DNA of 32,000 bases from Candidatus Scalindua sp. (GTDB lineage Bacteria > Planctomycetota > Brocadiia > Brocadiales > Scalinduaceae), in contig JALDRB010000001.1 of the NCBI GenBank assembly GCA_031316155.1, forward strand, positions 309,572 to 341,571, in the 5' to 3' direction. The position numbers were made by a program, and so were the translations under genes. Of the stretch, positions 163 to 25,383 are shown piece by piece; within the stretch, counting starts at the first letter, position 1, and every line of letters begins with the position of its first letter. Under the pieces are notes generated by a model. That model searched no databases, was not told the DNA's origin, and was given only the letters and a program-made list of their open reading frames with translations.

Positions 163-519
163 TTGGTTTTAAGATATCTGTATTTTATGAAATTTACTGA
201 ATTTATTAACAAAGCTGAAAAAATGGGTGGATTGACGCTCTCTATAATTAGTGGAGCCGAGATTTTTCTCAAGAATCAGGTCCTGTCTCGAATAAAAAAA
301 TGTTTCTTTGCAAGTGGAGGAGAAGAACAGGGATTAATTGTCTTTCGTGGTGAAGATCCTGGAAATAAAAAAACAGGTGAATATTTAGATAGTACCAGCA
401 TCGAAAACAGTGATATTCGTACATCATATCGTGATGTTTTTGAAGAGGTCGGTACTGTTTCCATGTTTGGCACGTATAAACTGGTGATTGTTGAGAATGC
501 GGATAACTTTTTGAAATGA
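163..519 (+). CDS. holA: DNA polymerase III delta subunit (HolA), N-terminal domain only; frame ends at TGA 517-519
   Basis: ORF 163-519 has TTG at 163; the first ATG is at 187 (MKFTEFINK). The translation shows the HolA N-domain pattern (LSIISGAEIFLKNQVLSRIKK, FRGED, MFGTYKLVIVENADNF). The same family continues without a gap in the next ORF, which is in the -1 frame. Confidence 0.6.
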   Translation: MVLRYLYFMKFTEFINKAEKMGGLTLSIISGAEIFLKNQVLSRIKKCFFASGGEEQGLIVFRGEDPGNKKTGEYLDSTSIENSDIRTSYRDVFEEVGTVSMFGTYKLVIVENADNFLK

Positions 520-1319
520 ACCAGCAGAAACTCTTGGAATTTCTAGAAAACCAATTTAATTCAAATTGCTTAGTTTTGAATGTATTATCTCTGGATAAGA
601 GAAAAAAAATCGTAAAAGCGCTAAACGGAAACAAAGGAGTTCTGATTGAATGCAATAAGCTTTATGACAGCCCTGCACCTTGGGAAAAGGAGAAAGCTGA
701 ATATGACAGTGAGTTAACAAAATGGATCGTTATGCATGCTGAAGGTTATGGTAAGAAGATGGATATGAAAACAGCCTTCTCTCTCTTGGAGAAGACGGGA
801 AATGATCTGGCTATTATTGATAAGCAGATAGAAATCTTGTCAATTTATGTGGGCGGTAGAAAACAAATTACTGAAGATGATATTCAAAAGGTGTTAGGGG
901 TGAGTCAGAGAGAAAAGATTTATCATTTACTCGATGCCATTGGTGGTAAAGATTTTGTTTCGGCTATGAGGATGGTAAAGGTTATGTTTGATACCGGTAT
1001 AGAAAATGAGAGGAAAAATATTATTTACGATGAAAAGGTAATTGCCATAGCCATAATCAGTTCATTACATAAAAGAATGAGAGATTTATGGAAGAGTGTC
1101 AGGATTATCAATAAAGGTGGTAGCGATGAAGAGATTATGGAAAATACATCCCAAAAGAGGATTTTTATTGATAAAATCAGAAGGCAAGCTCAAAATTTTA
1201 ATGAAGAAGAGATGCCTGATAAATGGAGATTTATGTTAGAAGCAGATTTGCTATGCAAAACCAGTAATCTGTCACCGGTTATTATAATAGAACAATTAAC
1301 AGCAAAATTATGTATATGA
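516..1319 (+). CDS. holA: DNA polymerase III delta subunit (HolA), domains II-III (continuation of the previous ORF)
   Basis: ORF 516-1319. ATG 516-518 overlaps TGA 517-519 of the upstream ORF (ATGA). The sequence QQKLLEFLEN...CLVLNVLSLDKRKKIVKAL, LAIIDKQIEILSIYVGG and REKIYHLLDAIGGKDFVSAMRMV fits the HolA family pattern. Confidence 0.7.
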   Translation: MNQQKLLEFLENQFNSNCLVLNVLSLDKRKKIVKALNGNKGVLIECNKLYDSPAPWEKEKAEYDSELTKWIVMHAEGYGKKMDMKTAFSLLEKTGNDLAIIDKQIEILSIYVGGRKQITEDDIQKVLGVSQREKIYHLLDAIGGKDFVSAMRMVKVMFDTGIENERKNIIYDEKVIAIAIISSLHKRMRDLWKSVRIINKGGSDEEIMENTSQKRIFIDKIRRQAQNFNEEEMPDKWRFMLEADLLCKTSNLSPVIIIEQLTAKLCI

Positions 1320-1424: not shown

Positions 1425-1438
1425 AAATGGAGGTGTAT

Positions 1439-3013
1439 ATGTTTTGCGGAAAGAGCGTGAATGCTGTTATTATTCTATTTTTTGCAATGCTTATTGGCGT
1501 GTATGGCTGTACCTCTCAACAAAACCAGGTAGTGATGGATGAAATGAGCATTGGGCGAGAAAGACCAAAATACACAGCTCCTGCGAATAGAGAAGAAACG
1601 ATTAGCATGAGGAGTGCAGAAGGATACTCTACGGAAGCTGGATCAAGAAGTGCTATTTCCATAAAAAAAATTGTACCCTCTCAAAGCTTGTTGGGACGGG
1701 TAATCGATGTTGTTATTAACGTAACGAACCTTAGCGACTCAACGGTTAATGATATTGAGGTGTTCGAAACCATTCCACAGAAATTTGACGTAAAAAGCTC
1801 CGAACCTCTTATGAAGGGAGATGTATTGTCGGGAAGAGCACATTGGCTTCTTGGTGATTTGGGACCCGGAGAAACAAAGGTAATTCGAGTTTCGGGTACG
1901 CCTGCAGCTTTAGGGGTCTTAGAGTTCTGCTGCACAGACGTGGCTTATAAATTACCCTTAAACATTTGTAAGACTACAAACGTTGTACAGCCAGAATTGA
2001 TGATTACGAAGCAGATACCGTCTGATGTTATAATTTGTGATCCAATACCAATAAAGATTGTGGTTACCAACACAGGAACAGGTACGGCTCAGAATGTGAA
2101 GATTAAAGAACCTCTCCCTTCAGGCATGAAGTCGCAGAGAGGTGAAGACTACGTGGAATATGATGTTGGCTCTTTGCAGTCAGGTGAATCACGAGAGGTT
2201 GTCTTCAACGTTAAGGCTGACCGAATCGGCACATTTGATAACTCAGCAACCGTTGTTGCTGATGATGGTTTGAGTGCTAATTCTAACACAACCACTACAG
2301 TCGTAAGTCAACCTGTTCTCTCTATCACCAAAACAGGGCCAGCGATACGGTATATTGGCCGGAATATCACGTATAACATCGTAGTAACCAATGAGGGCAA
2401 TGGGCCGGTCTTTAATACAGTTGTTGATGATTCCATTCCCACAAACACCTCAATGGTAAGAGCCAGTGACGGAGGTACTTTAACCGGAAAAGGCGTATTG
2501 TGGCATTTGGGTACTTTGCAGCCAAGGGAATCCAGAGAGGTAAGTGTGACTGTTCGGGCAGATAGTTTGGGAAAGGCTGAAAACTGTGCAGTCGTCAGTG
2601 GCGAATGTGCTGATGCAGTAAAAGATTGCGCTGTTACAGAAGTGGTTGGGATTTCTGCTATTCTCCTTGAAGTTGTCGATATCCAGGATCCAATCGAGAT
2701 CGGCGCAAGTGAGACGTATGAGATTACGGTAACCAATCAAGGTTCAGCGACTGGTACAAATATTACAATTGCATGTACTTTGGAATCAGGTACCATGGAA
2801 TATATTTCTTCTGATGGTCCAACGGCCGGATCATCTGTAGGCAACAGAATAATATTTGAACCCCTGCCTGCTTTAGGACCGAAAGAGAGGGCAATCTGGA
2901 GGATACATGTAAAGGCTGTTGGTAAAGGAGATGTGAGGTTTAAGGCTACTTTGAACAGTGATCAAATAGATCGAGTTGTGGAGGAAACAGAGTCAACGAA
3001 CTTCTACCAATAA
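1439..3013 (+). CDS. DUF11 (conserved repeat domain) lipoprotein, OmcB-like
   Basis: The ORF is open from 1427, but GGAGG at 1429-1433 sits 5 nt before ATG 1439, so 1439 is the likelier start. It has an N-terminal signal peptide with a lipobox-like GVYGC. Three or more repeats of the DUF11 pattern are visible (ITKQIP...IKIVVTNTGTGTAQNV, ITKTGP...YNIVVTNEGNGPVFNT, YEITVTNQGSATGTNI). Confidence 0.8.
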   Translation: MFCGKSVNAVIILFFAMLIGVYGCTSQQNQVVMDEMSIGRERPKYTAPANREETISMRSAEGYSTEAGSRSAISIKKIVPSQSLLGRVIDVVINVTNLSDSTVNDIEVFETIPQKFDVKSSEPLMKGDVLSGRAHWLLGDLGPGETKVIRVSGTPAALGVLEFCCTDVAYKLPLNICKTTNVVQPELMITKQIPSDVIICDPIPIKIVVTNTGTGTAQNVKIKEPLPSGMKSQRGEDYVEYDVGSLQSGESREVVFNVKADRIGTFDNSATVVADDGLSANSNTTTTVVSQPVLSITKTGPAIRYIGRNITYNIVVTNEGNGPVFNTVVDDSIPTNTSMVRASDGGTLTGKGVLWHLGTLQPRESREVSVTVRADSLGKAENCAVVSGECADAVKDCAVTEVVGISAILLEVVDIQDPIEIGASETYEITVTNQGSATGTNITIACTLESGTMEYISSDGPTAGSSVGNRIIFEPLPALGPKERAIWRIHVKAVGKGDVRFKATLNSDQIDRVVEETESTNFYQ

Positions 3014-4660: not shown

Positions 4661-5602
4661 ATGCTTAAGATAATTTTCTTAATAACAGTGTTGGTTAATC
4701 TAGTTTTTTTTAGTTTCCTACATCGTGTTGCTGTGGCTCTGGAAAGACACGAACAAGAAAGGGAAGATATTGTTATCCGGGAACTAGTTGTTAATAATGA
4801 TAATAAATACAGAACTGTTATCTGTAAAAATGAAGAAGAAGGAATTAAAGAATTAAGGAGTCTTGTTGATACTTCGAGAATAGAAGAGTGTTGGATATTT
4901 TTGCCTCCGGAAGAAAGGTGGGTTGAAATAGGAAGTGGAGCAGTTCCTGAAACGAGGGTAGATGACCATTTTATCACGAAAGTGGGAGTTGATGTCCAGT
5001 TTATGGAAAGTGTAATGGCAAAAAATAATTCTCTTATCGTGTATCACATCCACCCTACATATAGTCTTTTTCTTGAACACCAAATGAGGAAATGCAGAGA
5101 AAACGGCCAACCTATGAAGGAAAAAGAGGTAAAAAAAGCAAGAACTGAATTTTTAATAAAAAGGGCTTATCCCTCAGGGCAAGATTTAGGGAACATGATA
5201 GAAAACACAATGGAGTTTATTAAAAAAAATCCCGGTGGAAATATAATGTTCAAGATATGTTCACATTACGGAATAACCGAATGTTATTTGACTAAAGAGG
5301 GAAAGATATACTTTATCTGTGATAACTATCCAGATCTTTTTGAAAAAATCGTTAGAATTTGCATGAAAATGCATCGCGATGCGGCTCTTGCAGTGGAAAA
5401 TTATGAACAAAAAATCCGAAAAAAAGTAAATTTACTATACAGGATTAAGATGCACTCTAAACAAAAAAAAAGAAGTTTTTTGAGAGCTAATAACGGTTCC
5501 AAGTTCGAGATTGACCCATTTACTTTGATTAACAAAGCATTTGAAGCGATGAGTAGCGATTATCTAAAAGTGGCTTTTACACCTTACACACAAAGAGAGT
5601 AA
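4661..5602 (+). CDS. Hypothetical membrane-anchored protein (313 aa)
   Basis: A long ORF with an N-terminal TM helix (IIFLITVLVNLVFFSFL). I recognise no family with confidence. It contains YHIHP (res 128-132) and YPSGQD (res 170-175); see findings. Confidence 0.55.
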   Translation: MLKIIFLITVLVNLVFFSFLHRVAVALERHEQEREDIVIRELVVNNDNKYRTVICKNEEEGIKELRSLVDTSRIEECWIFLPPEERWVEIGSGAVPETRVDDHFITKVGVDVQFMESVMAKNNSLIVYHIHPTYSLFLEHQMRKCRENGQPMKEKEVKKARTEFLIKRAYPSGQDLGNMIENTMEFIKKNPGGNIMFKICSHYGITECYLTKEGKIYFICDNYPDLFEKIVRICMKMHRDAALAVENYEQKIRKKVNLLYRIKMHSKQKKRSFLRANNGSKFEIDPFTLINKAFEAMSSDYLKVAFTPYTQRE

Positions 5603-5636: not shown

Positions 5637-6269
5637 TTAAAAATCTTCCAGATATTCTGGGTTTTTACTAGCGTACAAAATATGGATTATATTCTTCATT
5701 TCTTTAGTGACTTGATAGCGTGTATCAAATACTGTCTTCAAAGACAATGAAATTTCTGTCTTTTCCGTTTCCCATATTGATTTATAGCTAAGGTGGTTGG
5801 GATCGGAAGGAAATTCCGGGCGCTTTTGAAATCTTTCGTCTTTCCATGTTTCATCTTCAGAGACAGGAGCTCCATATTTTCGTGCCAAAATGTTCCTGAG
5901 CTTATAATATATATCAATGTAGGAATTCTTTTTTTCGTATTCCTTTCTAAAAGAATATTCTGATCCCACAAGACTATCGTTAAGGAAGAAATAACTCATT
6001 TGGACATCCATCTCCGCAACTTTCTCATTATATACGATTACTTCATCAGCCACGAGACCTGTATAGCTTTCATTTATCTTCTTCTCTGTTTGTATTCTTG
6101 CTGATTCGCTCTCACTGGCTTTGACTTCATTTTTTGTCATTCCCCACCTAGTCTTACGGAAATCGAATGAAGTTGCTCCTTGGTCATCGGAAAAACAAGC
6201 CGTATGATATAACAAAATTGTGCATACTAAAAAAGTAATTGGGATGCATTGTCGCAAAAGAATTTTCAT
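5637..6269 (-). CDS. Hypothetical secreted protein or lipoprotein (210 aa), last gene of the lipid operon
   Basis: ATG 6269-6267 directly abuts the TAA (6272-6270) of the upstream radical SAM gene (TAAATG). It has a signal peptide (ITFLVCTILLYHTAC). Confidence 0.65.
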   Translation of the reverse strand: MKILLRQCIPITFLVCTILLYHTACFSDDQGATSFDFRKTRWGMTKNEVKASESESARIQTEKKINESYTGLVADEVIVYNEKVAEMDVQMSYFFLNDSLVGSEYSFRKEYEKKNSYIDIYYKLRNILARKYGAPVSEDETWKDERFQKRPEFPSDPNHLSYKSIWETEKTEISLSLKTVFDTRYQVTKEMKNIIHILYASKNPEYLEDF

Positions 6270-7736
6270 TTAACTTACGGTAACTCCAGTTTCTGCTGGC
6301 ACCGTTACAGAACTACTCTTATACCAATCCTGATAATAATCCCCAGAATCATAAAGTTTCTGCAAATTTTCCAGTACCTGTTGAAAGACCTGTTGCCAAT
6401 CGGAACCAACCCTGAAACCAAACATAGCGTTGCGTTTTCCGTGTCTTGTGCTGCCGATAGTTTTGGCTGATTTCCTAAAGCGCTGTCTCAGATTGTCGCC
6501 AGCATACAGATGGTCATACATATATTGCATGCCCTCAATAAAATCTTCCAATGTCATATCTACAAACCTGTGCACCACATGCGCCGTGTCGTAATATTTC
6601 CAATCTTCTGGATAATTCTTACGAAAAATCCTCTTTTCAGCATTTAATCTGTGGTAGAGTGCAGTTTGAGGAAAAGGACAATTAATACCAAAGGTCAAGA
6701 CATCGATATTGTTCTCCAAGACAAATTCTGTCATTTTTTTAAACGAATCCTTGTTATCTCCATCTGCTCCCAAGACGATAGAACCCCAAACTATGAGTCC
6801 GTGGTCATGAATCTTTTGAATACAGTCAAAATAACTATCAGTCCCAAGTCTTAGATTTACCTTTTTGTTCATCTTCTCCAAGACTGCTTCATTTGTTGAT
6901 TCTATTCCACAAAGAAAGCCAAAATTTCCGCTCTTAGCCATCAAATCCAGCGCTTCAGCATCCTGAGAGATGTTGAGGGCCGTAAATCCAAGCCAGTCCT
7001 TCTGGATCCCCCTTTCGATCATTCCACGCCAGAGGCTCTTTGCTCTGTTTGCAGAGTTTTTGCTATGGCCGTAAAAATTGTCTTCAGCAAACATGAGGCC
7101 CTTGTAATCGGTGGCTTCCATTTCATCCAAGACATCTTCGTATGGTCTTTCACGGTATTTTTTCCCTTGAAAGGTTGGAACGCTACAGAAATCACAGTAA
7201 TTTGGGCATCCCTTTGTGGTGACAATTGAAGAGAACTTATAATTGTATTTTTTCTTCATGAATTCCCTGTTGGGAAAAACATTTTTCATTTCTGATAATG
7301 CAGGTAGCCCTCCATTATAAACTTTTTTAAGCTGGCCATTCTCAAAATCCTTAATGACTTGAGGCCACAGGGCTTCTGCCTCACCGGTGAAAATCGCATC
7401 AACGTATCGAGATGCTTCGTTAGGCATTACGGATGCATGGATCCCGCCCATTATTACCGTCATTCCTCTTTTTCTGCATACCTCGGCAATCTTGTAAGCC
7501 CTGGCAACTTGATATGTAACAGAGGTTATACAAACGAGATCCACATTGTCAAAGGTGAGGTTATCATTTTCGTCAATAGCCAGTTCCATATTTTCGTCTA
7601 TAATATCGAACTCCCAATCTCCTGGTGTTAAAGCCGCAATATATGCCAGATTTAGAGGCATCTGGACTATAACCGAAATACTCTCTTCGCCATGTCTCCC
7701 CGGAGGGTGTGGATTGATAAGCATCATTTTTCTCAT
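6270..7736 (-). CDS. B12-binding (class B) radical SAM protein
   Basis: The CxxxCxxC cluster motif is present (GCPNYCDFCSV). The N-terminal region is B12-binding-domain-like (LVCITSVTYQVARAYKIAEVCRKRGMTVIMGGIHAS). AGGAGG lies 8 nt upstream of ATG 7736. Confidence 0.9.
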   Translation of the reverse strand: MRKMMLINPHPPGRHGEESISVIVQMPLNLAYIAALTPGDWEFDIIDENMELAIDENDNLTFDNVDLVCITSVTYQVARAYKIAEVCRKRGMTVIMGGIHASVMPNEASRYVDAIFTGEAEALWPQVIKDFENGQLKKVYNGGLPALSEMKNVFPNREFMKKKYNYKFSSIVTTKGCPNYCDFCSVPTFQGKKYRERPYEDVLDEMEATDYKGLMFAEDNFYGHSKNSANRAKSLWRGMIERGIQKDWLGFTALNISQDAEALDLMAKSGNFGFLCGIESTNEAVLEKMNKKVNLRLGTDSYFDCIQKIHDHGLIVWGSIVLGADGDNKDSFKKMTEFVLENNIDVLTFGINCPFPQTALYHRLNAEKRIFRKNYPEDWKYYDTAHVVHRFVDMTLEDFIEGMQYMYDHLYAGDNLRQRFRKSAKTIGSTRHGKRNAMFGFRVGSDWQQVFQQVLENLQKLYDSGDYYQDWYKSSSVTVPAETGVTVS

Positions 7737-7748
7737 TTTATTCTCCTC

Positions 7749-9161
7749 CTAATTATTTAAAATCATACTCGCCACTCTCCATCCAGAGGACACAACTGCA
7801 CATATCCCTGGTCCAGGATTTGTCCAGTGTCCAGCCAGAAAAAGATTCCTGAAAGGTGTTGTATGCCGCAGCCTGTTCGACCATGTTTGGTCTACGGTAA
7901 CAGCCCAGCCATAAGCAGCGCCTTTTGAGTTAAGCGTATAGCGTTCTAAAGTCCTGGGTGTGCCCATTTCCATAACGTCAATGTGGTTCTGAATATTCGG
8001 TAAAAATGTTTCAAGATAACGTATGGTATACTGCTTCTTCTTTTCTTTAAAGATATTCCAGTCTTCTATTTCATCAAAACGCTCTTTTATGGATACAACA
8101 ACCGTAATTATCTGTTTATTGTCTGGGGAGAGGCTTGCATCAGCATGTGTTGGTACAGAAATATAAAACCAGCCGTTGTCGGCAAAACTCATGTCTCTTG
8201 AAGTGTGATAGAATCCTCTCTTTAAGCCTTTTAAATCGATTCTGCTGTCAAGTCCTAAATATAACAAGAAAAACGAACCACTTCCCTTCATCTTTCTGAT
8301 TTTGTGAAGGTATGATTCTTCGATTTCTTGATTATCTATTAAGGTAAAAAACAACTGTAACGGGTCTATGTTCGAAACGAAATTATCAGCAAAAAATTCC
8401 TCCCCTTTGTCTGTTATAACTCCTTTTGCAAACGTATTTTTCGTACTGATCTTCTTAATCGTAGAAGATAACATAATCTGGCCACCATAGTCAATAAATT
8501 TTTGAGCAATTCTGTCAGTGAAATTTTGGGTACTGCCTACTGGGTAATAAGCTCCGTCTTTGAGATAGTTAACCAGCATCTGACACATACCAATTGCTGA
8601 AGCCTCATGAGGTGGCGAACCAATATAGCCCCACTGTGCTGACAATACCATTTTAAGTCTTTCATCGGTAAAATACATATCCAGCATTTCCTTGTAAGTC
8701 AGGTCTTGGTATTTTGATAACAATTTGCTCTTTCCTGTGCTGACCGTGGATCGGTACAATCCCACAAACTCTTTGAAAAAAACTGGTATGGTTTTATTCT
8801 CAGATGCAAATTGTTGTGTTAACAGCTGAACGTAATCATCTAGTTCCGCAGGCACATCCAGAGAAAATGTTGGGAAATGGATACTATCCATTGGGTCAAG
8901 TCGCAAAAACCGGATGTTTATGTCGAGTTCACTGAGACATCTGCCAACTATGCCCCACTTTCCACATCCGCCAATATGATGAACTGCAGCATCGAAAATG
9001 AATCCTTTCCTTTTAAAAGAAGTGCAATAGCCTCCGGGTATATGGTGTTGTTCTAGTATCAATACTTTTTTCCCGTTTTTGGCTAAGAAAGCTCCACAAA
9101 TTAAGCCTGCTATTCCTGCGCCCATTATGATAACATCGTATTTTGATTCTTTAACATTCAT
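7749..9161 (-). CDS. Phytoene desaturase (CrtI)-like FAD-dependent oxidoreductase
   Basis: It has a Rossmann dinucleotide motif (YDVIIMGAGIAGLICGAFLAKNGKKVLILEQHHIPGG) and CrtI-family length and C-terminus (LFLAGHWTNPGPGI). The ORF is open to TTG 9197; the first ATG is at 9161 (MNVKESKYD). Confidence 0.85.
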   Translation of the reverse strand: MNVKESKYDVIIMGAGIAGLICGAFLAKNGKKVLILEQHHIPGGYCTSFKRKGFIFDAAVHHIGGCGKWGIVGRCLSELDINIRFLRLDPMDSIHFPTFSLDVPAELDDYVQLLTQQFASENKTIPVFFKEFVGLYRSTVSTGKSKLLSKYQDLTYKEMLDMYFTDERLKMVLSAQWGYIGSPPHEASAIGMCQMLVNYLKDGAYYPVGSTQNFTDRIAQKFIDYGGQIMLSSTIKKISTKNTFAKGVITDKGEEFFADNFVSNIDPLQLFFTLIDNQEIEESYLHKIRKMKGSGSFFLLYLGLDSRIDLKGLKRGFYHTSRDMSFADNGWFYISVPTHADASLSPDNKQIITVVVSIKERFDEIEDWNIFKEKKKQYTIRYLETFLPNIQNHIDVMEMGTPRTLERYTLNSKGAAYGWAVTVDQTWSNRLRHTTPFRNLFLAGHWTNPGPGICAVVSSGWRVASMILNN

Positions 9162-9257
9162 CAGGCTTGAAACGTAACGATTTGGTTTCAGTCGCAACTG
9201 ATTTTAAAACCGTCACCATATATCTGGTCAACAATTTACTTCATTCATTTTGCAGTA

Positions 9258-10499
9258 CTATTCGTTTGAATATTTTGAGATGATTATGGATGAAATATTA
9301 CCTGTATCAGAAAAAGCGTTGATCAGCACATTATTTACCTCTAGCTCTCTGCTTTTATTCGGAACAAAATCTAAATCGCAGTTCTCATCTTTTTCCTGAT
9401 AATTGATTGTTGGCGGGATAACTCCATTGTTAATTGCCATGATACTGGCAACACACTGCATAGCCCCTGATGCATCAAGGCATTCACCACTCATTGACTT
9501 TATTGCGCTTATGGGGGCCTGTTTTGCGAAATCACCAAAGTACTCTTCGATAACCCTGGTTTCCATGATATCTCCCGTTTCACTTGAGTTTGCGCATGCG
9601 GATATATAAGAGATATCGTTACTTTTAAGTTTAGCATCTTTCATCGCCACGGAAATGCATCTAGCACCCTCTTCTGTGTCGAGCAAGTCATGGTTGATTT
9701 TCTTGGGATTAAAGGTGTTTCCATATCCTTTTATTTCAGCATAAATTTTTGCGTCCCTCTTTAATGCGTCTTCCAGCCTTTCGATCACTAGTAATGCAGC
9801 GGTTTCTCCTAAGATAAAGCCATTCCGTCTCTTATCAAATGGAGCGGAGATCTCAAGAGATCCATTCTTGCTGCCTGAAAGAATACCAGATTTGTACGCG
9901 CCCCAGAAAATGTCAGGGGTGAGCCCATGTACCCCTCCAGCTAATACAGCTTTCACTCTTTTCAGCTTGAGGAAATCAGAAGCGTAAATTATCGCATCCA
10001 GTCCGCTCGTAACACCAGTTGAAATAGTTGAGTTAAGACCGGTAGCTTTACAAAATATTGAAGCTCTACTTGCAGGGGCATTCAGAACTGTATTCGGGAA
10101 ATCCATGGGATTTACAAAACTTGGTCCCTCTTTTAATGCTTCTAAATCAAATGAGCTGATACTGTCTATGCTGCCATATGTCGAGCCGATCACAATTCCC
10201 AAATCTTCTTCTCCATAAATTTCATGGGTGATTTTGGCATCTTCCATTACCAGCTTTGCTGCTGAAGATGCCAGAAGCGAGGTTCTGTCAATGTGTCGTA
10301 TCCCCTTCTTGCCCAGGTATTCCTTTGCGTCAAAGTTTGATATCTCTCCTGCTTTTTTACTTTTATATCGGGAAACATCAAATAGCGTAACATCCTTTAT
10401 ACCGGAATTACCGTTTGTCAAATTGTGCCAAAATTCGTCTTTGTTTAAGCCGAGAGGAGACAAAATACTCATTCCCGTTATTACCAAGCGGATACTCAT
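9258..10499 (-). CDS. Beta-ketoacyl synthase-like protein lacking the Cys-His-His triad (CLF-like)
   Basis: It has the KS fold throughout and aligns to the neighbouring FabF. The FabF motifs TACAAG / SAHGTGT / GHTMGAAS read TGVTSG / SACANSS / GECLDASG here. The ORF is open to TTG 10541; ATG at 10499 gives the canonical MSIRLVITGM start. Confidence 0.85.
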   Translation of the reverse strand: MSIRLVITGMSILSPLGLNKDEFWHNLTNGNSGIKDVTLFDVSRYKSKKAGEISNFDAKEYLGKKGIRHIDRTSLLASSAAKLVMEDAKITHEIYGEEDLGIVIGSTYGSIDSISSFDLEALKEGPSFVNPMDFPNTVLNAPASRASIFCKATGLNSTISTGVTSGLDAIIYASDFLKLKRVKAVLAGGVHGLTPDIFWGAYKSGILSGSKNGSLEISAPFDKRRNGFILGETAALLVIERLEDALKRDAKIYAEIKGYGNTFNPKKINHDLLDTEEGARCISVAMKDAKLKSNDISYISACANSSETGDIMETRVIEEYFGDFAKQAPISAIKSMSGECLDASGAMQCVASIMAINNGVIPPTINYQEKDENCDLDFVPNKSRELEVNNVLINAFSDTGNISSIIISKYSNE

Positions 10500-10646
10500 A
10501 GTTTTTATTAATCCATCAGAAAAATGTTTTTCACTAAACAAAACGTTAACGGAGTTAATTAAGTACCGTTAACTTTGATACATGCAACTGGTATGATAAA
10601 GGTAATAATCTCTTTTTTTGGTTAGAGGACTGAGTAATGGTAACCT

Positions 10647-11867
10647 TTACCCGGAAAACTTCTTTAACACAAGACAGCTATTGTTGCCGCCAAAGGCATA
10701 TGCGTTATTCAATGCTATGTTTATTTCCATTTCGCGTTTAACATTTGGCACGAAATCCAAATCGCATTCAGGATCCTGAGTCTCAAAATTTATTGTGGGT
10801 GGAACAATACCTTCTTTGATAGCCAAAGCGCATGCAATGGCCTCTATAGCACTGGCAGCTCCCATGGTATGTCCAATCATGGATTTAATAGAACTGATAG
10901 CCAGCCGTTTCGCATGTTCTCCGAAAACCTTCTTGATTGAAATAGTTTCTGCCTTGTCGTTGGCTACGGTCCCGGTACCATGTGCGCTTATATGTTGAAC
11001 ATCCCCAGGTTTTATGTTCGCATCTCTTAATGCCTTTTCCATTGCAGAAACAACACCATTGCCGTCCGGGTGAGGAATGGTAATGTGATATCCATCGCAA
11101 CTTAATCCGTAACCTAAAATTTCTGCATAGATATTTGCGTTTCTTGCCAAGGCGTCTTCTAAAGATTCCAGCACCAGCATTCCGGCTCCTTCACCAATTA
11201 GCATTCCCTTTCTGTTCTTGTCAAAAGGCTGACAGATTTCCGGTGCAATAGCATTTAGCCTTCCAAATCCAACGTAAGCTACTTTTGAAAATGGATCTGA
11301 GCCTCCGGCGAGCATAATATTTGCTCTACCCAGTCTTATTAAATCGCATGCATAGCCAATAGCATAATTCCCTGCCGCACACGCTGTTGGGATTATTGTG
11401 GTTGGCCCCTTAAAGCCAAATTCAATTGAGATATTGGAAGGTATGTTAATGCATGGGTGACTTAAAAAGAGGTGTGGGTCGATTTTGTCTTCACCATTCT
11501 CAAATCGTAAAAGATTTACCTTCTCAAGTATCTGAATTTCACCCGCAGTTGTTCCGATAGAAACACCAACGCTTTCAGGATCTATATCTTTTGTATAAAT
11601 CTGAGAGTCATCCAAGGCAAGTTTAGTAGCAGCAATTGCAAATTGTGATCCCTTACCGATTTTCCGGTTTGAACCGTTACTCACATAATCCTCATACTTG
11701 AAGCCCTTTACCTCGCAACCTCGGTGTACTTTGAATATAGACGTATCGAAGGATTTTACTTCCGATACCCCGGATTTACCGGAAATCAAGGCATCCCAGA
11801 AAATCTCTTTTCCGCATCCTATGGGAGATATCACTCCAACACCAGTTATTACAATTCTTTTATCCAT
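10647..11867 (-). CDS. fabF: Beta-ketoacyl-ACP synthase II
   Basis: The N-terminus is [17 protein letters not shown]. The active-site Cys ([12 protein letters not shown]) and both His residues ([20 protein letters not shown]) are present, as is the C-terminal [15 protein letters not shown]. Confidence 0.95.
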
Positions 11868-12021
11868 GAAACTTCATTCTCAAATTTCTGATTCTTTCAC
11901 CTGCACACACATCGAAAGCTCTTTGCAGTGCGAGTATACACGTTTGAAGCGTTGCGTGGTATTAATGATCATGTATAACTGCGCTCCGAAAAAGCAGTTG
12001 TTCTTATACTGTCTATCTTGC

Positions 12022-12471
12022 TTACTGCATTAAAGATTCTTTTTCTGTAACCCCAAAACTTAATGTTGCCTTCGAAACAATCTTTTCTCCAACCTTCGCT
12101 ACACCCCTTACAATTGCAGCAGTTGAAATAACTTTTTCAGTGTTGATCTCTAAGAGTAGCTGGTCGCCCGGAAAAACAGGTTTTGAAAAACGAACATTGG
12201 CTGAAGCCAATAGAAATACCTTGTCTTTGCCCTTGTCTGAATTAAAGCTCTTCTGGAAGAGAATTATCGAGGCTTGCGCCATGGCCTCTAAAATAAGAAC
12301 TCCCGGCATTATGGCAAAATCAGGAAAGTGTCCGGCAAAAAACGCTTCATTGCCTGAAATGTTTTTCAAACAAACAATTTTGCTTTCTTTTTGATATTCA
12401 ATAACCCTATCGATAAATAGGAACGGGAATTTTTGAGGAACCAGCTTCCTTACTTCCTCAAAGCCTAACAT
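12022..12471 (-). CDS. fabZ: 3-hydroxyacyl-ACP dehydratase
   Basis: It carries FPFLFIDRV and GHFPDFAIMPGVLILEAMAQ (catalytic His and Glu context). The ORF is open to TTG 12495; ATG at 12471 gives a typical N-terminus. Confidence 0.9.
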   Translation of the reverse strand: MLGFEEVRKLVPQKFPFLFIDRVIEYQKESKIVCLKNISGNEAFFAGHFPDFAIMPGVLILEAMAQASIILFQKSFNSDKGKDKVFLLASANVRFSKPVFPGDQLLLEINTEKVISTAAIVRGVAKVGEKIVSKATLSFGVTEKESLMQ

Positions 12472-12639
12472 TGTTGAATGCCTTTCGATGTTCAATTGTC
12501 TTAATATACGGATCAGTTACTTTAAGAACGACCAGTGTTTTAAAGGTGTACAAGTGCCTCTTGCATGACCTGGTTACGTAATGAACTTTTATAGCGAGCC
12601 GTTACGTTCACTTGGTGAGTTGATTAGGTCTATAAAAAA

Positions 12640-12909
12640 TTAGGTTTTTGCATTTCCCTCAATTGTTGATTTTGTCATCTCAATTGTGGCGTTTAGTGAA
12701 GTAATATCAACTAGCTTTTCTTCCGGGATCTGTATCTTGAATTTTTTTTCAATAAGCGCCAGAATTTCCAATGCTAATAAGGAATCTATTTCTAAATCTT
12801 TAAAAAAATCAGCGTCTCTTTTCTCCCATATTTCATTCTCGTCTAACTCGGTTACTTCTGCCACAATTGATGTAACCTCTTTTTCTATATTATCAACAGC
12901 CAATATCAT
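12640..12909 (-). CDS. acpP: Acyl carrier protein (dedicated, operon-leading)
   Basis: An 89-aa protein with the phosphopantetheine site DLEIDSLLALEI. GGAGG (12915-12911) is only 1 nt from ATG 12909 but 7 nt from the in-frame TTG at 12903, so the true start may be 12903. Confidence 0.9.
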   Translation of the reverse strand: MILAVDNIEKEVTSIVAEVTELDENEIWEKRDADFFKDLEIDSLLALEILALIEKKFKIQIPEEKLVDITSLNATIEMTKSTIEGNAKT

Positions 12910-13077
12910 ACCTCCTTATAAAACAGTAATTATGGAAAGTTACAATAAAACGAATTTAGAATTTAGAAAACGATATAATAATATGAACATACCGTTATAA
13001 GGCTCGCTACTGTTCGAATTATAGGGTAGTTAGCGTAAAATTCAATACCATTTAACATAAAGAAAAATTTGAATGGA

Positions 13078-13106
13078 AAAATAACAAACTTACCCTGAGA
13101 TGTCAA
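13078..13106 (-). promoter_or_regulatory. Candidate sigma70 promoter for the ACP operon
   Basis: The minus strand reads TTGACA (13106-13101), a 17-nt spacer, then TATTTT (13083-13078), about 170 nt upstream of the ACP start. Confidence 0.35.
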
Positions 13107-13120
13107 TAACAATCTTGTTT

Positions 13121-13142
13121 GAAATGAGAATATTCTCATTTC
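13121..13142. promoter_or_regulatory. Perfect 22-bp palindrome (possible operator or hairpin)
   Basis: gaaatgagaatattctcatttc is its own reverse complement. It ends 14 nt upstream of the candidate -35 at 13106-13101. Confidence 0.4.
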
Positions 13143-13152
13143 AAGTTATACA

Positions 13153-13175
13153 AAAACCATTACGAGGTGAGTATA
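13153..13175 (-). repeat. Intergenic repeat family, 5' module only (copy D)
   Basis: The minus strand reads TATACTCACCTCGTAATGGTTTT, which matches copies A (15154-15132) and B (24937-24959) at 20-21 of 23 positions. It is preceded on the minus strand by TTGGCA (13214-13209), an 18-nt spacer, TAATAT (13190-13185) and then 9 nt. Confidence 0.45.
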
Positions 13176-13254
13176 AACAAAATGATATTATGTAATTCAT
13201 AGTTTTCCTGCCAAAGTCCTATTGCTTCAGGTAAAGAGTCCGTACGTTTCAAAA

Positions 13255-14076
13255 TTATCTGCAGTTGTACCATAACGTAATAACAATATTGGGTATGTCC
13301 CATAAAAATTCTGTTGAGATAAATTCTCCCATTTCGTCTAAAGGGAGTCTGACCTGTCTGGTTTGTCCTTTTTTAATACCACCTATTTCCCTATTAATGA
13401 TAGGGATAGTTTTTAACGGGTTTACCGTATCTGACTGAGGTAGTCGATCAGAAAAATTCGGATTATTAAAGTATTCCATTAATTTCTCAATAGCAGAGTT
13501 TCTTTTTGTTGAGGCAAATATCACTATTGCTCCTTTTCCGTAATTTTTCCCAAAGGGTAACCATTTCTTCATTGGAGGCACAAAATATGTCAAATTTGCT
13601 GTCAAAGGGTTTGTCTGTGCACTGAACTTCCTTCGTGGAAAAAGTGGAAAGATGATGCCTGTTGGTTCAATCCTGAATATGTATACAAAACAGGTTCTTC
13701 TTGGGGTAAAAGATATTTTACCTTTATCTCTCCTCTGCACAACATCTCCATTATTAATTTTTACAGCAAGTGTTTTGTTGTCAACAACCTTCATCTTCAG
13801 AACGTCAAATTCTAAAAAGCTTATTTCCTCTTCTCTAGTGGTAAATCCTTTTGCTTGAAGAAGAATATCATAGAGTTTCTTTGCATTTGAAGCATATGGG
13901 CTGCCATAATTTTTCTTCAAATGTATGAGAAAGGACTTAAGGGAAGAGTTTTGGGAATTGTTTACAGGAGTATATGATGCTTCTGTGAAGTTTTCCTTCG
14001 CGGCCATTCCAAGAGCGGTTACCATTACAATAATCAACAGGTATTCAGTAAGTCTGCGAACTTTTACGGGATACAA
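13255..14076 (-). CDS. Secreted hypothetical protein, DUF4384-like C-terminal half
   Basis: The ORF is open to 14157 but would then overlap the proC 3' end by 70 nt. TTG at 14076 gives MYPVKVRRLTEYLLIIVMVTALGMAA, a signal peptide. The segment CFVYIFRIEPTGIIFPLFPRRKF...GKGAIVIFAS resembles the DUF4384 pattern. Confidence 0.6.
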   Translation of the reverse strand: MYPVKVRRLTEYLLIIVMVTALGMAAKENFTEASYTPVNNSQNSSLKSFLIHLKKNYGSPYASNAKKLYDILLQAKGFTTREEEISFLEFDVLKMKVVDNKTLAVKINNGDVVQRRDKGKISFTPRRTCFVYIFRIEPTGIIFPLFPRRKFSAQTNPLTANLTYFVPPMKKWLPFGKNYGKGAIVIFASTKRNSAIEKLMEYFNNPNFSDRLPQSDTVNPLKTIPIINREIGGIKKGQTRQVRLPLDEMGEFISTEFLWDIPNIVITLWYNCR

Positions 14077-14086
14077 TTTATTTACT

Positions 14087-14905
14087 CTATTTCGAAAAGG
14101 TTCTTCCAAGTTTTTTTGATTTTTTAGTTGCAGCCTCAACTGCATCAATGAGTGCACTTCTCATGCCGCCTTTTTCTAAAGCATGTATACCTTCAATTGT
14201 TGTTCCTCCAGGAGAGGATACAAAATCCTTTAGTTTACCTAAATGTATGTTGGATTCGAGTACCATTTTTGCAGCACCGAGAACTGTCTGTGCAGCAAGC
14301 GTTGTTGACATATCTCTGGGTAAACCCATCTTTACCCCACCGTCTGACAGTGCTTCGATAACCATATAGACATAAGCAGGTCCGCTTCCGCTTAAACCTG
14401 TTATTGCGTCAAGAAGGTGCTCTTCCAATAGATAAGCTTTTCCAACGGTCTTTAGGATATCGCAAACGAAAACCCCGTCATCACGGGTGGCATTTTTCCC
14501 CAATGAAAAACCTGCAGCACCTTCACCAACGAGACATGGAGTGTTTGGCATTACCCTGATAACCCGGCAGTTTCTGTTTAAAATCGATTCTATGAAACCC
14601 GTAGGGATTCCGGCCGCTATAGAAACAACAAGGTGTCTAACCGTTATTTCATTCTTCAATTCTTCAAGGATATGTCCTATTGTATTTGGTTTCGTGGCAA
14701 GAACGAGAATGTCAGAACAGGATGCTACTTTGTTGTTTTCCTGTGTGGTTTTAATCCCCGTTTCTCTCTCTAATATCTGGCATCGATTGTTGTCTATGTC
14801 ACTGGCCATAATTGTGTCCTTGGTAGAGAGCTTTGCATGTAAGATACCTTTTATTAAGGCCTCTCCCATCTTTCCACCACCAATAAAGCCTATTTTTTCT
14901 TTCAG
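14087..14905 (-). CDS. proC: Pyrroline-5-carboxylate reductase
   Basis: ProC family features run throughout (PNTPCLVGEGA, GSGPAYVYMVIEALSDGGV, SPGGTTIEG). The Rossmann motif IGFIGGGKMG lies upstream of the first ATG (14869). The only SD-compatible start is CTG 14905; see findings. Confidence 0.9.
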   Translation of the reverse strand: MKEKIGFIGGGKMGEALIKGILHAKLSTKDTIMASDIDNNRCQILERETGIKTTQENNKVASCSDILVLATKPNTIGHILEELKNEITVRHLVVSIAAGIPTGFIESILNRNCRVIRVMPNTPCLVGEGAAGFSLGKNATRDDGVFVCDILKTVGKAYLLEEHLLDAITGLSGSGPAYVYMVIEALSDGGVKMGLPRDMSTTLAAQTVLGAAKMVLESNIHLGKLKDFVSSPGGTTIEGIHALEKGGMRSALIDAVEAATKKSKKLGRTFSK

Positions 14906-15014
14906 TATGTTCTCCTTATCTCATGAATCCGCTGTGCAGGTATAAAATCAATACTGTAAATGGTCATGGTTTCCGCTTGATTTATTAAGGGGAGTTTCTT
15001 ATTTTATACCTATC

Positions 15015-15156
15015 CAGATATACTAAAATCGATTTGGTTTTCGGATTTACTGAAAACCAAATCCTGGTGAAGGTGTCCCCGGACAGGCGCCGAGGACTTT
15101 ACTCGCTCAATTTTATCTCGGATTTTATCCGAAAACCATTATGAGATGAGTATACA
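15015..15156 (-). repeat. Intergenic repeat family, full copy A (candidate sRNA/leader or MITE)
   Basis: On the minus strand the 5' module is TATACTCATCTCATAATGGTTTT (15154-15132). The 3' module is GTAAATCCGAAAACCAAATCGATTTTAGTATATCTG (15050-15015), identical at 33 of 36 positions to copy B. It contains a perfect 12-bp hairpin, gatttggttttc (15031-15042) / gaaaaccaaatc (15052-15063). Confidence 0.6.
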
Positions 15157-15162
15157 AACTGG

Positions 15163-15191
15163 ATTTTACTGTGGTATATAGTATGTGTCAA
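15163..15191 (-). promoter_or_regulatory. Candidate sigma70 promoter reading into repeat A and proC
   Basis: The minus strand reads TTGACA (15191-15186), a 17-nt spacer, then TAAAAT (15168-15163). The repeat's 5' module starts 8 nt downstream. Confidence 0.45.
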
Positions 15192-15205
15192 TTGTTTAAT
15201 TAAAT

Positions 15206-15814
15206 ATGAATGTTACCTTTTTCAGATGGATACCGCTTCTTTATTTCAAAATTTTTCATAGAGTTAGGTTTTATGGGTGTGAAAACGTTCCTGACTCAGG
15301 GCCTGTTGTAATTGCCCCGAACCATATCAGTTTTTATGATCCGATAATAGTTGCGATTGGTATAAAAAGAGACATGGAATTTATGGCATGGGACAGACTT
15401 TTTTCAATACCTATCCTGAATAGAGTAATACGTTTTTTTGGTGCCTTTCCAGTTGAGTTGACAAAGTTTGATAAGAGTGCATATATTAATGCCCTCAAGG
15501 CCTTGAATAACGGGCACGCGTTAATGCTCTTTCCCGAGGGGAGGAGAAGTATAGACGGAAAAATTAAAGAGTATAAACTCGGGCTTGCACGCATAGTTTT
15601 TAAGACAAATGCCCAAATAGTTCCAGTTACGATTGTTGGTGCTTATGCGGCGTGGCCAAAGCATAAAAAACTGCCACGCCCAAAAAGAATACTCGTTTAC
15701 TATCACAAACCTATGACAATTGAAAAACGCAAGTTTCAAGATATGAAAACCAGAAATGAATTCTTTGCTAAAGTAACAAACCAGGTAATGGAAGTTATTG
15801 GTAGTAAGTTGTAA
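15206..15814 (+). CDS. plsC: 1-acyl-sn-glycerol-3-phosphate acyltransferase
   Basis: The HX4D motif (APNHISFYDP) and the FPEGRRS motif are present. The size is typical of the PlsC family. Confidence 0.85.
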   Translation: MNVTFFRWIPLLYFKIFHRVRFYGCENVPDSGPVVIAPNHISFYDPIIVAIGIKRDMEFMAWDRLFSIPILNRVIRFFGAFPVELTKFDKSAYINALKALNNGHALMLFPEGRRSIDGKIKEYKLGLARIVFKTNAQIVPVTIVGAYAAWPKHKKLPRPKRILVYYHKPMTIEKRKFQDMKTRNEFFAKVTNQVMEVIGSKL

Positions 15815-15816
15815 GT

Positions 15817-16671
15817 GTGAGGAATGATAACGAAATGACTAAATTTGAAAACAGTCTAGAAAAAAAATTTAAGGTTGCGGCAATTCAATTTTGCGCAAAT
15901 GAAGAGAAAGAAGAGAATTTACAATTTATCAGCCGGCTTATCGATACTGCTGTCGAAAACGATGTAGATATTGTTGTTCTGCCTGAAATGTTTAATTGCT
16001 GCGGGCGTATTGAAGCTATGATAGAAAATGCAGAGAAAATACCCGGTTACACGACAAATCTTCTTTCGGAAAAAGCGAGAAGATTCAAAATTTGTATAGT
16101 GTGTGGAAGTATCTTTGAAAAGTTTCAAAAGGATAAGGTCTTCAACACGTCAGTGCTTGTTGGCAGGAGCGGAGAGATTTTAGCCAAGTATAGCAAGATT
16201 CACCTTTTTGATGTTGATATTTTGAACAAGATACGATATAAAGAATCCGATCATGTATTAGCGGGAAACAGACTCGTTACCGTAAACATGGGACAATTTG
16301 ATGCTGGCTTGGTTATATGCTACGACTTACGCTTCTGTGAGCTTTTTCGGGTTTTGACATTAAAGGGTGCAAAGATTTTCTTTGTTCCTGCAGCGTTTAC
16401 GGCTGCTACGGGGAAATACCATTGGGAACCGTTGATCAAGGCCCGCGCTATTGAGAATCAGGTGTTTATTGTTGCTGCAAACCAGATAGGGACGAGTCCA
16501 AATAATATTACCTGTTATGGGAAAAGTATGATAGTTGACCCATGGGGTAAGGTGCTGGCGAAGGCGAAGGATAACGAAAATATCATTTATGCTGAAGTTG
16601 ATTTGAGTTTGTTGGAGACTATTCGAGCAGAGATTCCTTTGTTTAAACATAGGCGTACCGATTTATATTGA
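15817..16671 (+). CDS. Carbon-nitrogen hydrolase (nitrilase/omega-amidase family)
   Basis: The Glu-Lys-Cys triad contexts are present: VVLPEMF, YSKIHLFD, GLVICYDLRF. GTG at 15817 or ATG at 15835 are possible starts. Confidence 0.85.
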   Translation: MRNDNEMTKFENSLEKKFKVAAIQFCANEEKEENLQFISRLIDTAVENDVDIVVLPEMFNCCGRIEAMIENAEKIPGYTTNLLSEKARRFKICIVCGSIFEKFQKDKVFNTSVLVGRSGEILAKYSKIHLFDVDILNKIRYKESDHVLAGNRLVTVNMGQFDAGLVICYDLRFCELFRVLTLKGAKIFFVPAAFTAATGKYHWEPLIKARAIENQVFIVAANQIGTSPNNITCYGKSMIVDPWGKVLAKAKDNENIIYAEVDLSLLETIRAEIPLFKHRRTDLY

Positions 16672-16682
16672 ATTTGGAGATT

Positions 16683-17858
16683 ATGATGAAATTAGTATAT
16701 GTTGATAATAATGCTACTACTCAAGTTGATGCCAGCGTGCTTGAAGAAATGCTGCCATATTTTAGGGAATACTACGGGAATCCTTCAAGTTTGCATACGT
16801 TTGGGAGGCAAGTTGCAGGTAAGATTGATATTTCCAGAGAAAGGGTTGCTGACCTCTTGGGTGCAAGTGCGTCCGAAATTGTATTCACAAGCTGTGGAAC
16901 TGAAAGTAACAATAATGCAATACACTCTTCTTTAGAGGCTAATCCTCAAAAAAAGCACGTAGTTATAACGAAGGTAGAACATCCTGCTGTGTTAAATTTG
17001 TGCAGATATTTTGGAAAGAATGGTTATGAAGTAACGGAATTGCGTGTTGATGAGAATGGGATGCTTGATCAGAATGAGCTAAGAGAGTCTATAAGAGAGA
17101 ATACCGCTATTGTTTCGATTATGTTTGCAAACAATGAAACGGGCATTATCTTTCCGATCGAGGAAATCGGTAAAATAGTAAAAGAAAAAGGGGTACTCTT
17201 TCATTGTGATGCTGTGCAGGCCATCGGTAAAATACCGATAAATTTGAGAAACAGTTATATTGATTTACTGTCACTTTCCGGGCACAAGCTTCATGCATCA
17301 AAAGGCATTGGAGTCCTTTATATACGAAAAGGTGTAAGGGTTAATCCGTTAATTATTGGTGGTCATCAAGAAAGTAACAGGCGGAGTGGGACAGAAAACG
17401 TTCCGGCCATCATAGGGTTGGGAAAGGCTTGCGAATTAGCGAAAGAATCACTGGAAGATTATCAAAAAAGGGTTAAGGGTCTTAGAGATACGTTGGAGCA
17501 TGGTATTAAGGCGAGCATTTCAAACGTAAAAATAAATGGAGAAAAGAGCAGCCGTTTGCCAAATACGAGTAATATAGCTTTTGAGTATGTTGAAGGTGAG
17601 GCTATCTTGCTGTTACTTGACATGGCAGGTATCGCCGCATCATCTGGCTCTGCCTGTACAACTGGCTCAACGGAACCTTCACATGTTTTGCAAGCGATGG
17701 GAGCCCCTCCCTCTCAAAGCAGAGGAGCTATTAGGTTCAGTCTTAGTAGATATAACTCAGACGATGAAATTCGTTACATTCTCGAAAAATTGCCACCAAT
17801 CATTAAGAAATTACAAGATCTTTCTCCGGTCTTTGAAGATTCACAGCTTAGCACTTGA
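16683..17858 (+). CDS. nifS: Cysteine desulfurase (NifS/IscS family, class V aminotransferase)
   Basis: It carries VYVDNNATT, the PLP lysine context SLSGHKLHASKGIG and the catalytic Cys loop ASSGSACTTGS. GGAG precedes ATG 16683; the ORF is open from TTG 16668. Confidence 0.9.
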   Translation: MMKLVYVDNNATTQVDASVLEEMLPYFREYYGNPSSLHTFGRQVAGKIDISRERVADLLGASASEIVFTSCGTESNNNAIHSSLEANPQKKHVVITKVEHPAVLNLCRYFGKNGYEVTELRVDENGMLDQNELRESIRENTAIVSIMFANNETGIIFPIEEIGKIVKEKGVLFHCDAVQAIGKIPINLRNSYIDLLSLSGHKLHASKGIGVLYIRKGVRVNPLIIGGHQESNRRSGTENVPAIIGLGKACELAKESLEDYQKRVKGLRDTLEHGIKASISNVKINGEKSSRLPNTSNIAFEYVEGEAILLLLDMAGIAASSGSACTTGSTEPSHVLQAMGAPPSQSRGAIRFSLSRYNSDDEIRYILEKLPPIIKKLQDLSPVFEDSQLST

Positions 17859-25050: not shown

Positions 25051-25383
25051 TTAAGCTGATTCTATGTTTGCGCTGACAATAGCGGCCATCTGCATCATGT
25101 TGATCGTCTGACCTTCTTTCAGCTTTGTAAGGTCAGTGGTTTTACCTGATTTGCTTTTGGATTTTGTGTTTTTGAAGATCGGGAGCAATTTGGAATCAGC
25201 CACAATGAACTTGCCTGCATTCTCAGGTTTTCCATTTTCAGTCTTTGTCTGAAGTTTATTTGTTTTAATATAGTCCCATATTTTTTTGGTGATCTCTGTC
25301 CTGGGAAGTTCCGTTGCTCCCAGAAACTCTGCCAGTGCTTTTTTTAGCTTTACCGGTTTACTCAATCCTTTTGCTTCTGCCAT
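25051..25383 (-). CDS. SWIB/MDM2 domain protein
   Basis: LKKALAEFLGATELPRTEITKKIWDYIKTNKLQ is the SWIB signature region. ATG at 25383 is preceded by AAGGAGA; the ORF is open further, to 25464. Confidence 0.8.
   Translation of the reverse strand: MAEAKGLSKPVKLKKALAEFLGATELPRTEITKKIWDYIKTNKLQTKTENGKPENAGKFIVADSKLLPIFKNTKSKSKSGKTTDLTKLKEGQTINMMQMAAIVSANIESA

Follow-up and report, generated by a model that had tools for sequence, protein, structure and literature searches.

The closest described relatives of the gene pair reported here come from 'Cluster I' of the anaerobic ammonium-oxidizing (anammox) bacteria, a group of six genes (kuste3603-3608 in Kuenenia) that is the main candidate for ladderane lipid biosynthesis and that the literature calls exclusive to ladderane producers. 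Two adjacent genes of this cluster encode ketosynthase (KS) homologues, one with and one without the Cys-His-His triad of the active site. The triad-less ('dead') protein of Kuenenia, Kuste3606, was tabulated in 2009 as Val163/Asn298/Glu333 at these positions, with the conclusion that its function must differ (Rattray et al. 2009; PMC2649909). We describe such a pair, amxFabF2 (active) and amxFabFmut (dead), from a stretch of 32,000 nucleotides (nt) of Candidatus Scalindua sp. (assembly GCA_031316155.1, contig JALDRB010000001.1, positions 309,572-341,571 of the forward strand). This whole stretch is called the window hereafter, and gene coordinates are those of the window unless another contig is named. 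The pair belongs to the six-gene Cluster I, and its products very probably assemble into amxFabFhet, the cluster's heterodimeric condensing enzyme.

The orthologous enzymes were characterized in a recent preprint (Granatino et al., bioRxiv, 21 May 2026; 10.64898/2026.05.19.726425). The two subunits were inactive alone, were active when co-expressed, and co-purified, with the physical heterodimer and its pair-only activity being shown for the orthologues of Kuenenia and Brocadia fulgida. The heterodimer decarboxylates malonyl-amxACP, in which amxACP is the anammox-specific acyl carrier protein (ACP), and yields acetoacetyl-amxACP. Its crystal structure, at 2.6 Å, has a tunnel lined by Phe135, Thr138 and Val139 of amxFabFmut, and the modelled tunnel holds chains of up to C12-C16. 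Alpha-bromoacyl C6 and C8 probes crosslink efficiently to the active Cys and do so faster than C16, a behaviour altered by mutation of dead-subunit tunnel residues (Val139 and Phe135 mutations shift the chain-length kinetics). The dead orthologue has a separate tunnel that held polyethylene glycol (PEG) in the crystal, and the closest structural homologue of amxFabF2 is Iga11 (Granatino et al. 2026). Elsewhere in the cluster, orthologues of the dehydratase amxFabZ favour chains no longer than C8 and take no carrier but amxACP, and Kuenenia kuste3607, when assayed in E. coli, showed no phytoene desaturase activity of the CrtI kind.

In the window, both KS genes lie on the minus strand, the active one first (11867..10647) and the dead one after it (10499..9258). 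The original prediction, made from the letters of the window, had placed the active gene before the dead one, which is true along the direction of transcription. The preprint places amxFabFmut 'just upstream' of amxFabF2; the dead gene is downstream in the window and in each of the six related loci that we compared. The active subunit (amxFabF2, 10647..11867, minus strand) has 406 amino acids (aa), with Cys163, His296, His333 and a gate residue, Phe392, that corresponds to Phe394 in B. fulgida numbering. The dead, chain-length factor (CLF)-like subunit (amxFabFmut, 9258..10499, minus strand) has 413 aa, with Val163, Cys302 and Glu339 at the triad positions and Phe134, Thr137 and Val138 as tunnel-lining residues. 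An alternative TTG start would extend the dead open reading frame (ORF) to 9258..10541 (minus strand, 427 aa), adding 14 residues; we favour the ATG at 10499, because homologues measure 411-413 aa and a database protein of 100% identity has 413 aa. That identical protein is from Candidatus Scalindua sp. and the next matches are from Scalindua, Brocadia and Brocadiales, which makes the host an anammox bacterium. Both products have the N- and C-terminal ketoacyl-synt domains of Pfam (E = 1e-44 and 1e-41 in the active KS, 2e-35 and 2e-23 in the dead KS), and they align with each other at 37% identity across 412 columns (BLASTP, E = 1e-85).

The same BLASTP alignment gives the state of the triad. 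Cys163 of the active KS (PTACAAG) is aligned with Val of the dead KS (STGVTSG), His296 (SAHGTGT) with Cys (SACANSS), and His333 (IGHTMGAAS) with Glu (SGECLDASG). These are exactly the three substitutions of the original prediction, and a HMMER alignment puts the Val, Cys and Glu in the Cys, His and His columns of Bacillus subtilis FabF (4LS5/4LS6). The motifs that had been listed as retained by the dead protein (LAGG, FDKRRNGF, IKSM, PPTINY and DLDFVPN) are likewise all present in it. The loss of the triad is a property of the family: none of the 120 proteins most similar to the dead subunit has the Cys-His-His combination. These proteins share 64-86% identity with it and come from Scalindua, Brocadia and other Brocadiales. 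Their combinations at the three positions are T-C-E (59), V-C-E (40), E-N-E (8), I-N-E (6), E-N-D (4) and V-N-E (3), with one partial T-C. Since Thr, Val, Ile and Glu all occur at the former Cys position among these 120 proteins, the position varies more than the preprint's 'Val, or Thr in S. brodae' suggests.

Orthology to the solved pair is close. The active KS matches chain B of PDB entries 9S5H and 9S5I with E = 6.6e-208, and the dead KS matches chain C with E = 6.8e-176; from their chain composition (two KS homologues, with an ACP in 9S5I only), these entries appear to be the structures of the preprint. The gene context agrees. Six co-directional genes follow one another in the order amxACP, amxFabZ, amxFabF2, amxFabFmut, phytoene-desaturase-like flavoprotein and B12-binding radical S-adenosylmethionine (SAM) enzyme, and the order is identical in four Brocadia-type loci (L003-L006), in Scalindua japonica (L007) and in a further Scalindua locus (L012), with flanks that vary by genus. 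The described Cluster I orthologues (Kuenenia kuste3605/3606, B. fulgida Broful02171/02170 and Scalindua brodae Scabro02229/02228) share the context, the triad pattern, the gate Phe and the F/T/V of the tunnel, so that the differences from the window are at the level of species only; at the triad positions, the window has Val/Cys/Glu, B. fulgida and Kuenenia have Val/Asn/Glu, and S. brodae is reported to have Thr at the first. The original prediction had read the KS pair correctly but had not connected it with Cluster I, the 'ladderane' locus of anammox bacteria.

Selection has acted on the dead gene as on a working one. A comparison of two Brocadia-type loci puts the ratio of non-synonymous to synonymous substitution rates (dN/dS) at 0.067 for the dead and at 0.092 for the active gene; for Scalindua species compared with each other, dN reaches 0.134 and dS is saturated. 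Purifying selection on the dead gene is therefore at least as strong as on its active partner and, together with the complete absence of the triad from the 120 homologues, this shows that the loss is due neither to chance nor to decay. Among 29 diverse relatives, the tunnel-lining F/T/V of the dead KS (motif DFPNTVLN in the window) is kept in 27. The former Cys position holds eight residue types in the same set (V/T/I/E/A/F/M/S), and the second-His position is Glu in 28 and Asp in the remaining one, usually with Cys next to it. The reading of the second gene as a decaying, functionless FabF duplicate, to which the loss of all three catalytic residues would be congenial, is refuted by these data and has practically no chance of being right, given an intact frame, 64-86% identity to orthologues across anammox genera, a dN/dS not above that of the active partner, conserved synteny and an orthologue that is needed for activity.

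A monomer model of the dead subunit (AlphaFold2) is confident (mean predicted local distance difference test score 88.5) apart from residues 110-140, which are the helix-loop-helix region that the preprint found disordered when the partner was missing. In a Foldseek search of a PDB library extending to 2026-04-08 and lacking 9S5H, its top matches were B. subtilis FabF structures (4LS5-4LS8; template modelling score 0.91). Canonical FabF thus has the same fold, and its full triad is present in the active subunit; the difference, as shown for orthologues, lies in a heterodimer in place of a homodimer and in a dedicated ACP. Neither protein of the window reaches the cut-off of the fabF equivalog model TIGR03150 (493.75 bits), the active KS scoring 466.4 bits and the dead KS 347.6 bits.

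Further described systems pair an active KS with an inactive one. In the actinorhodin type II polyketide synthase (KS-alpha/KS-beta; ActI-ORF1/ORF2; 1TQY), an active KS adjoins a Cys-less partner, the pair is an obligate heterodimer and the acyl tunnel is lined by the inactive subunit, all of which is also seen in the anammox orthologues. The context differs, since Cluster I resembles a fatty acid synthase (FabZ and a dedicated ACP) with an added desaturase-like flavoprotein and radical SAM enzyme and is devoid of cyclases and aromatases. CLFs of the actinorhodin type carry Gln at the position of the active-site Cys, a residue that is absent there from the dead KS of the window, which has Val, and from all 120 close homologues. 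We also scored a profile of the dead-KS family against solved structures and considered the 60 best PDB matches. Chain C of 9S5H scored 675 bits, FabFs 330-392 bits and the profile's own partner KS 389 bits, compared with 295 bits for the actinorhodin KS (1TQY_A), 294 bits for Iga11 and 227 bits for the actinorhodin CLF (1TQY_B). Because of the Val in place of Gln and the preference of the profile for FabF over the actinorhodin CLF, the dead subunit looks like a separate lineage derived from FabF. As far as sequence comparison can tell, it is a FabF derivative that works like a CLF and lies outside the actinorhodin CLF clade. The analogy to KS/CLF pairs drawn in the original prediction consequently holds for the mechanism, for which the heterodimer and the tunnel of the orthologues speak, but not for the family.

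The Iga11/Iga12 pair of ishigamide biosynthesis (6KXD-6KXF), from a highly reducing type II polyketide synthase, is similar in being a heterodimer of KS and CLF that acts together with reducing and dehydrating enzymes, and Iga11 matches the active KS of the window with E = 3.8e-100. Its CLF, Iga12, is missing from the top 60 PDB matches to that profile of the dead-KS family, the lowest of which scored 225.6 bits, and the system differs in its product (a polyene amide), its host (Streptomyces) and its gene context. Aryl-polyene (APE) clusters, finally, pair KS and CLF as ApeO and ApeC. They share with the window a KS beside a dead KS-like partner and FabZ-like dehydratases, and the Pfam matches of the cluster's FabZ include ApeP-like and ApeI-like families. 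Beyond these, the Pfam annotation of the whole window contains no hallmark gene of APE clusters, showing the six cluster genes and unrelated neighbours only, APE sequences not having been compared directly.

We suggest the following mechanism for the Scalindua pair, transferred from the Brocadia-type orthologues on the basis of 67-74% identity and identical key residues. The active subunit, amxFabF2, would supply the sole Cys-His-His site, used for transacylation, decarboxylation and condensation on amxACP-bound substrates. Its partner, amxFabFmut, would be unable to condense and would take the place of the second FabF protomer, with its helix-loop-helix completing and narrowing the acyl tunnel. 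The complex would initiate, and would probably extend, short (about C6-C8) chains on amxACP, and amxFabZ would dehydrate them; the short-chain preference of the complex matches that of the adjacent amxFabZ. The expectation, in the original prediction, of a heterodimer like that of KS and CLF is borne out by the co-purification, the pair-only activity and the crystallographic heterodimer of the orthologues (through orthology to 9S5H/9S5I). Its further expectation, a product of defined chain length in place of bulk fatty acids, is supported by the preference for C6/C8 over C16 probes and by that of amxFabZ for chains up to C8, both from orthologues, with the caveat that no elongation past acetoacetyl-ACP was seen in vitro. 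Iterative elongation to a defined length is something that we infer, because the orthologous complex left hexanoyl-ACP unelongated. That the intermediate is 'probably unsaturated' is unproven; the basis of this proposal was the adjacent phytoene-desaturase-like gene, whose Kuenenia counterpart showed no CrtI-like activity, as noted above. The product would presumably feed ladderane synthesis, for which Cluster I is the main but unproven candidate.

Several points weigh against this account. The orthologous heterodimer failed to elongate hexanoyl-ACP in vitro, with nothing beyond acetoacetyl-ACP seen; the chain-length preference is based on a crosslinking reaction that is not physiological; and amxFabFmut of S. 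brodae, when alone, crystallizes as a homodimer (Granatino et al. 2026). That key source is a preprint whose main text gives no PDB codes, so the link to 9S5H/9S5I depends on the chain composition given above. No experiment in the literature ties Cluster I to ladderanes. On the window pair and its family, we observed orthology, the loss of the triad, synteny, conserved residues in the tunnel and selection against change; heterodimer formation, pair-only activity and the influence of the dead subunit on chain length come from the orthologues and would extend to the Scalindua proteins by homology.

Two further points on the same side come from the sequence of the window. The spacer between the active and the dead KS genes measures 147 nt (10500-10646), and the two genes are therefore not translationally coupled; elsewhere, the spacer is 6 nt (S. 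japonica, L007) or about 51-53 nt (Brocadia-type loci and Scalindua L012). It has no Rfam match, no convincing terminator and no recognized RNA or regulatory element, an Rfam scan of the whole window likewise gave no match, and promoter-like and terminator-like sites are no more frequent in the window than in shuffled sequence. Lastly, net charge was counted crudely over the helix-loop-helix (106-140) and the partner helix; the totals, -3 in the active subunit and -4 in the dead one, did not reproduce the electrostatic asymmetry that the preprint describes. Since a hand count of the B. fulgida segments likewise gives no asymmetry, we regard this count as uninformative rather than contradictory.

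The rival account that survives best accepts the heterodimer but confines it mainly to initiation. It would decarboxylate malonyl-ACP and make acetoacetyl-ACP on the dedicated amxACP, in replacement of FabH; the dead subunit would be needed only to stabilize the active one, and chain length would be set elsewhere. We judge this unlikely. In its favour, decarboxylation and acetoacetyl-ACP are all that was detected in vitro, hexanoyl-ACP was not elongated, and the six-gene core has no FabH-like gene. It does not sit well with the efficient crosslinking of C6 and C8 alpha-bromoacyl probes, with the altered chain-length kinetics of the Val139 and Phe135 mutants or with a modelled tunnel that accommodates up to C12-C16 and whose residues are conserved throughout the family.

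An extension of the amxFabFhet assignment would have the dead subunit do more than gauge length, either by holding a second ligand (a folded polyene or ladderane intermediate) or by docking the desaturase-like and radical SAM enzymes. The near-constant Glu, usually followed by Cys, at a time when the former Cys position varies, is compatible with such a role, as is the PEG in the separate tunnel, but we give it only a small chance. If the docking part were true, the heterodimer would be a scaffold for cyclobutane formation.

A very improbable alternative, proposed by Rattray et al. (2009, as cited in 10.64898/2026.05.19.726425), is that the triad-less paralogue is an independent enzyme, for instance one that joins a ladderane moiety, made separately, to a short acyl chain. 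Strong conservation of the dead protein and the near-invariant Glu at the second-His position, usually with its neighbouring Cys, would suit an enzyme. The former Cys position, with the eight residue types listed above, offers no conserved nucleophile, however, and the orthologue alone shows neither activity nor crosslinking and has a tunnel of its own that reaches no catalytic site; the variable position and the inactivity largely refute the proposal.

The remaining members of the cluster are all encoded on the minus strand. The first gene, amxACP (12640..12909), encodes the anammox-specific ACP (Pfam PP-binding, E = 9e-14), with PDB matches to 7QV0 chain D (E = 2.9e-43), 7AUF (E = 1.7e-36) and 9S5I chain E (E = 1.8e-35). 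It is followed by amxFabZ (12022..12495), an anammox-specific 3-hydroxyacyl-ACP dehydratase (Pfam FabA-like, E = 1.6e-26) that matches 8AYI (E = 1.1e-74) and 7QV0 chain A (E = 1.4e-74). Downstream of the KS pair, the kuste3607 orthologue (7749..9197) is a phytoene-desaturase-like flavin adenine dinucleotide-dependent oxidoreductase (Pfam Amino_oxidase, E = 1.7e-22, and NAD_binding_8) that scores 146 bits against the NCBIfam model crtI_fam, under the cut-off of 238. The last conserved gene, the kuste3608 orthologue (6270..7736), encodes the B12-binding radical SAM enzyme (Pfam Radical_SAM, E = 8e-16; B12-binding, E = 7e-9; DUF4070); among NCBIfam models it matches TIGR04072 (rSAM_ladder_B12) best, with 93.8 bits where the cut-off is 360.

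About 2.3 kb from the ACP gene and divergent from it, a PlsC-type acyltransferase, a carbon-nitrogen hydrolase and a class-V aminotransferase are encoded at 15206-17858 (plus strand). The same trio lies next to the cluster in Scalindua L012 and is missing from the Brocadia-type loci; the acyltransferase could be relevant to the attachment of the cluster product to glycerol. Directly after the radical SAM gene, two ORFs have no Pfam match (4661-5602, plus strand; 5637-6269, minus strand). The second, of 210 aa, abuts the stop codon of the radical SAM gene, has a hydrophobic N-terminus and shows no similarity to the S. japonica gene at the equivalent position. A DUF4384 gene (13255-14157, minus strand) stands between proC and the ACP gene. 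These three ORFs are all missing from the otherwise syntenic L012, have a low GC content (about 0.34) and look like strain-specific insertions outside the cluster.

Farther from the cluster, at about 10 kb, there is an unusual pairing of a second B12-binding radical SAM gene (22265-23755, minus strand; best NCBIfam match BchE-like, 186 bits against a cut-off of 481) with an ORF of 888 aa (19612-22278, minus strand) that overlaps its 3' end by 14 nt and matches a known family in residues 90-377 only (GlpX-like class II fructose-bisphosphatase). The gene for the delta subunit of DNA polymerase III, holA, is broken up into two ORFs that overlap and differ in frame (163-519 and 516-1319, plus strand), which together cover the 378-aa product of L012 (residues 1-110 at 65% and 113-377 at 69% identity); either a frameshift or an assembly error of the metagenome-assembled genome would account for this. 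Unrelated neighbours comprise a surface protein with four DUF11 repeats (1427-3013, plus strand), a SWIB/MDM2-domain protein (25051-25464, minus strand), a HicB/UPF0150-like antitoxin (26762-27040, plus strand) and the R subunit of a type I restriction enzyme (1040 aa, 27404-30526, minus strand).

Relatives of the dead KS also occur in other gene contexts, at 42-52% identity, in four loci (L008-L011). Two metagenomic contigs (L009, from SRR32147499, 644-12079; L011, ERZ25039463 contig_26365 of 1.8 Mb, 6021-17221) carry genes for an ACP, FabZ, KS, dead KS and a desaturase-like protein, after which come three tandem B12 radical SAM genes and another KS pair; their dead KS has E-G-E at the triad positions and is 46-47% identical to that of the window. 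The third locus (L008, 5911-12563) combines a methyltransferase, a ketoreductase, a dead KS, a FabZ-like protein, a KS, an ACP and a desaturase-like gene. In the fourth, from an Omnitrophota genome (L010, 8001-11944), a dead KS is found with a ketoreductase, a FabZ-like protein and a flavoprotein, and no adjacent active KS was called. A contig scan with the dead KS as the lone query, for which the peptide patterns were overly specific, returned only two unrelated KS loci (L001 and L002, 24-25% identity).

The wider family is broader still. Most of the best 150 relatives from an exhaustive search of cluster representatives at 50% identity are themselves triad-less, with an x-x-E pattern, and one cluster includes a protein named Candidatus Helarchaeota archaeon. 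In many relatives (e.g. P0122, P0125/P0272, P0127 and P0130, with about 40 more), one chain of about 800-830 aa joins a KS with intact Cys-His-His to a triad-less KS; these fusions are covalently linked KS/CLF-like pairs. Should L009, L011 and the fusions lie outside the known anammox bacteria, related unusual lipids may be made there as well, a weaker reading than that of a dead subunit which does more than gauge length, and the taxonomy of L009 and L011 decides whether the exclusivity of Cluster I to ladderane producers needs to be qualified.

Ladderane biosynthesis is a long-standing open problem, and the candidate pathway has few parts whose mechanism is defined, the pair of KS and dead KS being one, for which reason its detection from raw sequence was a good call. 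The pair was already known, and the reading is correct rather than new: a table of 2009 already recorded the lost triad, and the CLF-like heterodimer was shown in 2026 for orthologues, so the window adds only another Scalindua orthologue. The additions made here are incremental and concern the family, namely a triad that is never kept, conserved tunnel residues, a FabF origin distinct from that of polyketide synthase CLFs, related modules in other contexts, and fusions of KS with dead KS. They may help in the choice of targets for work on the ladderane pathway.

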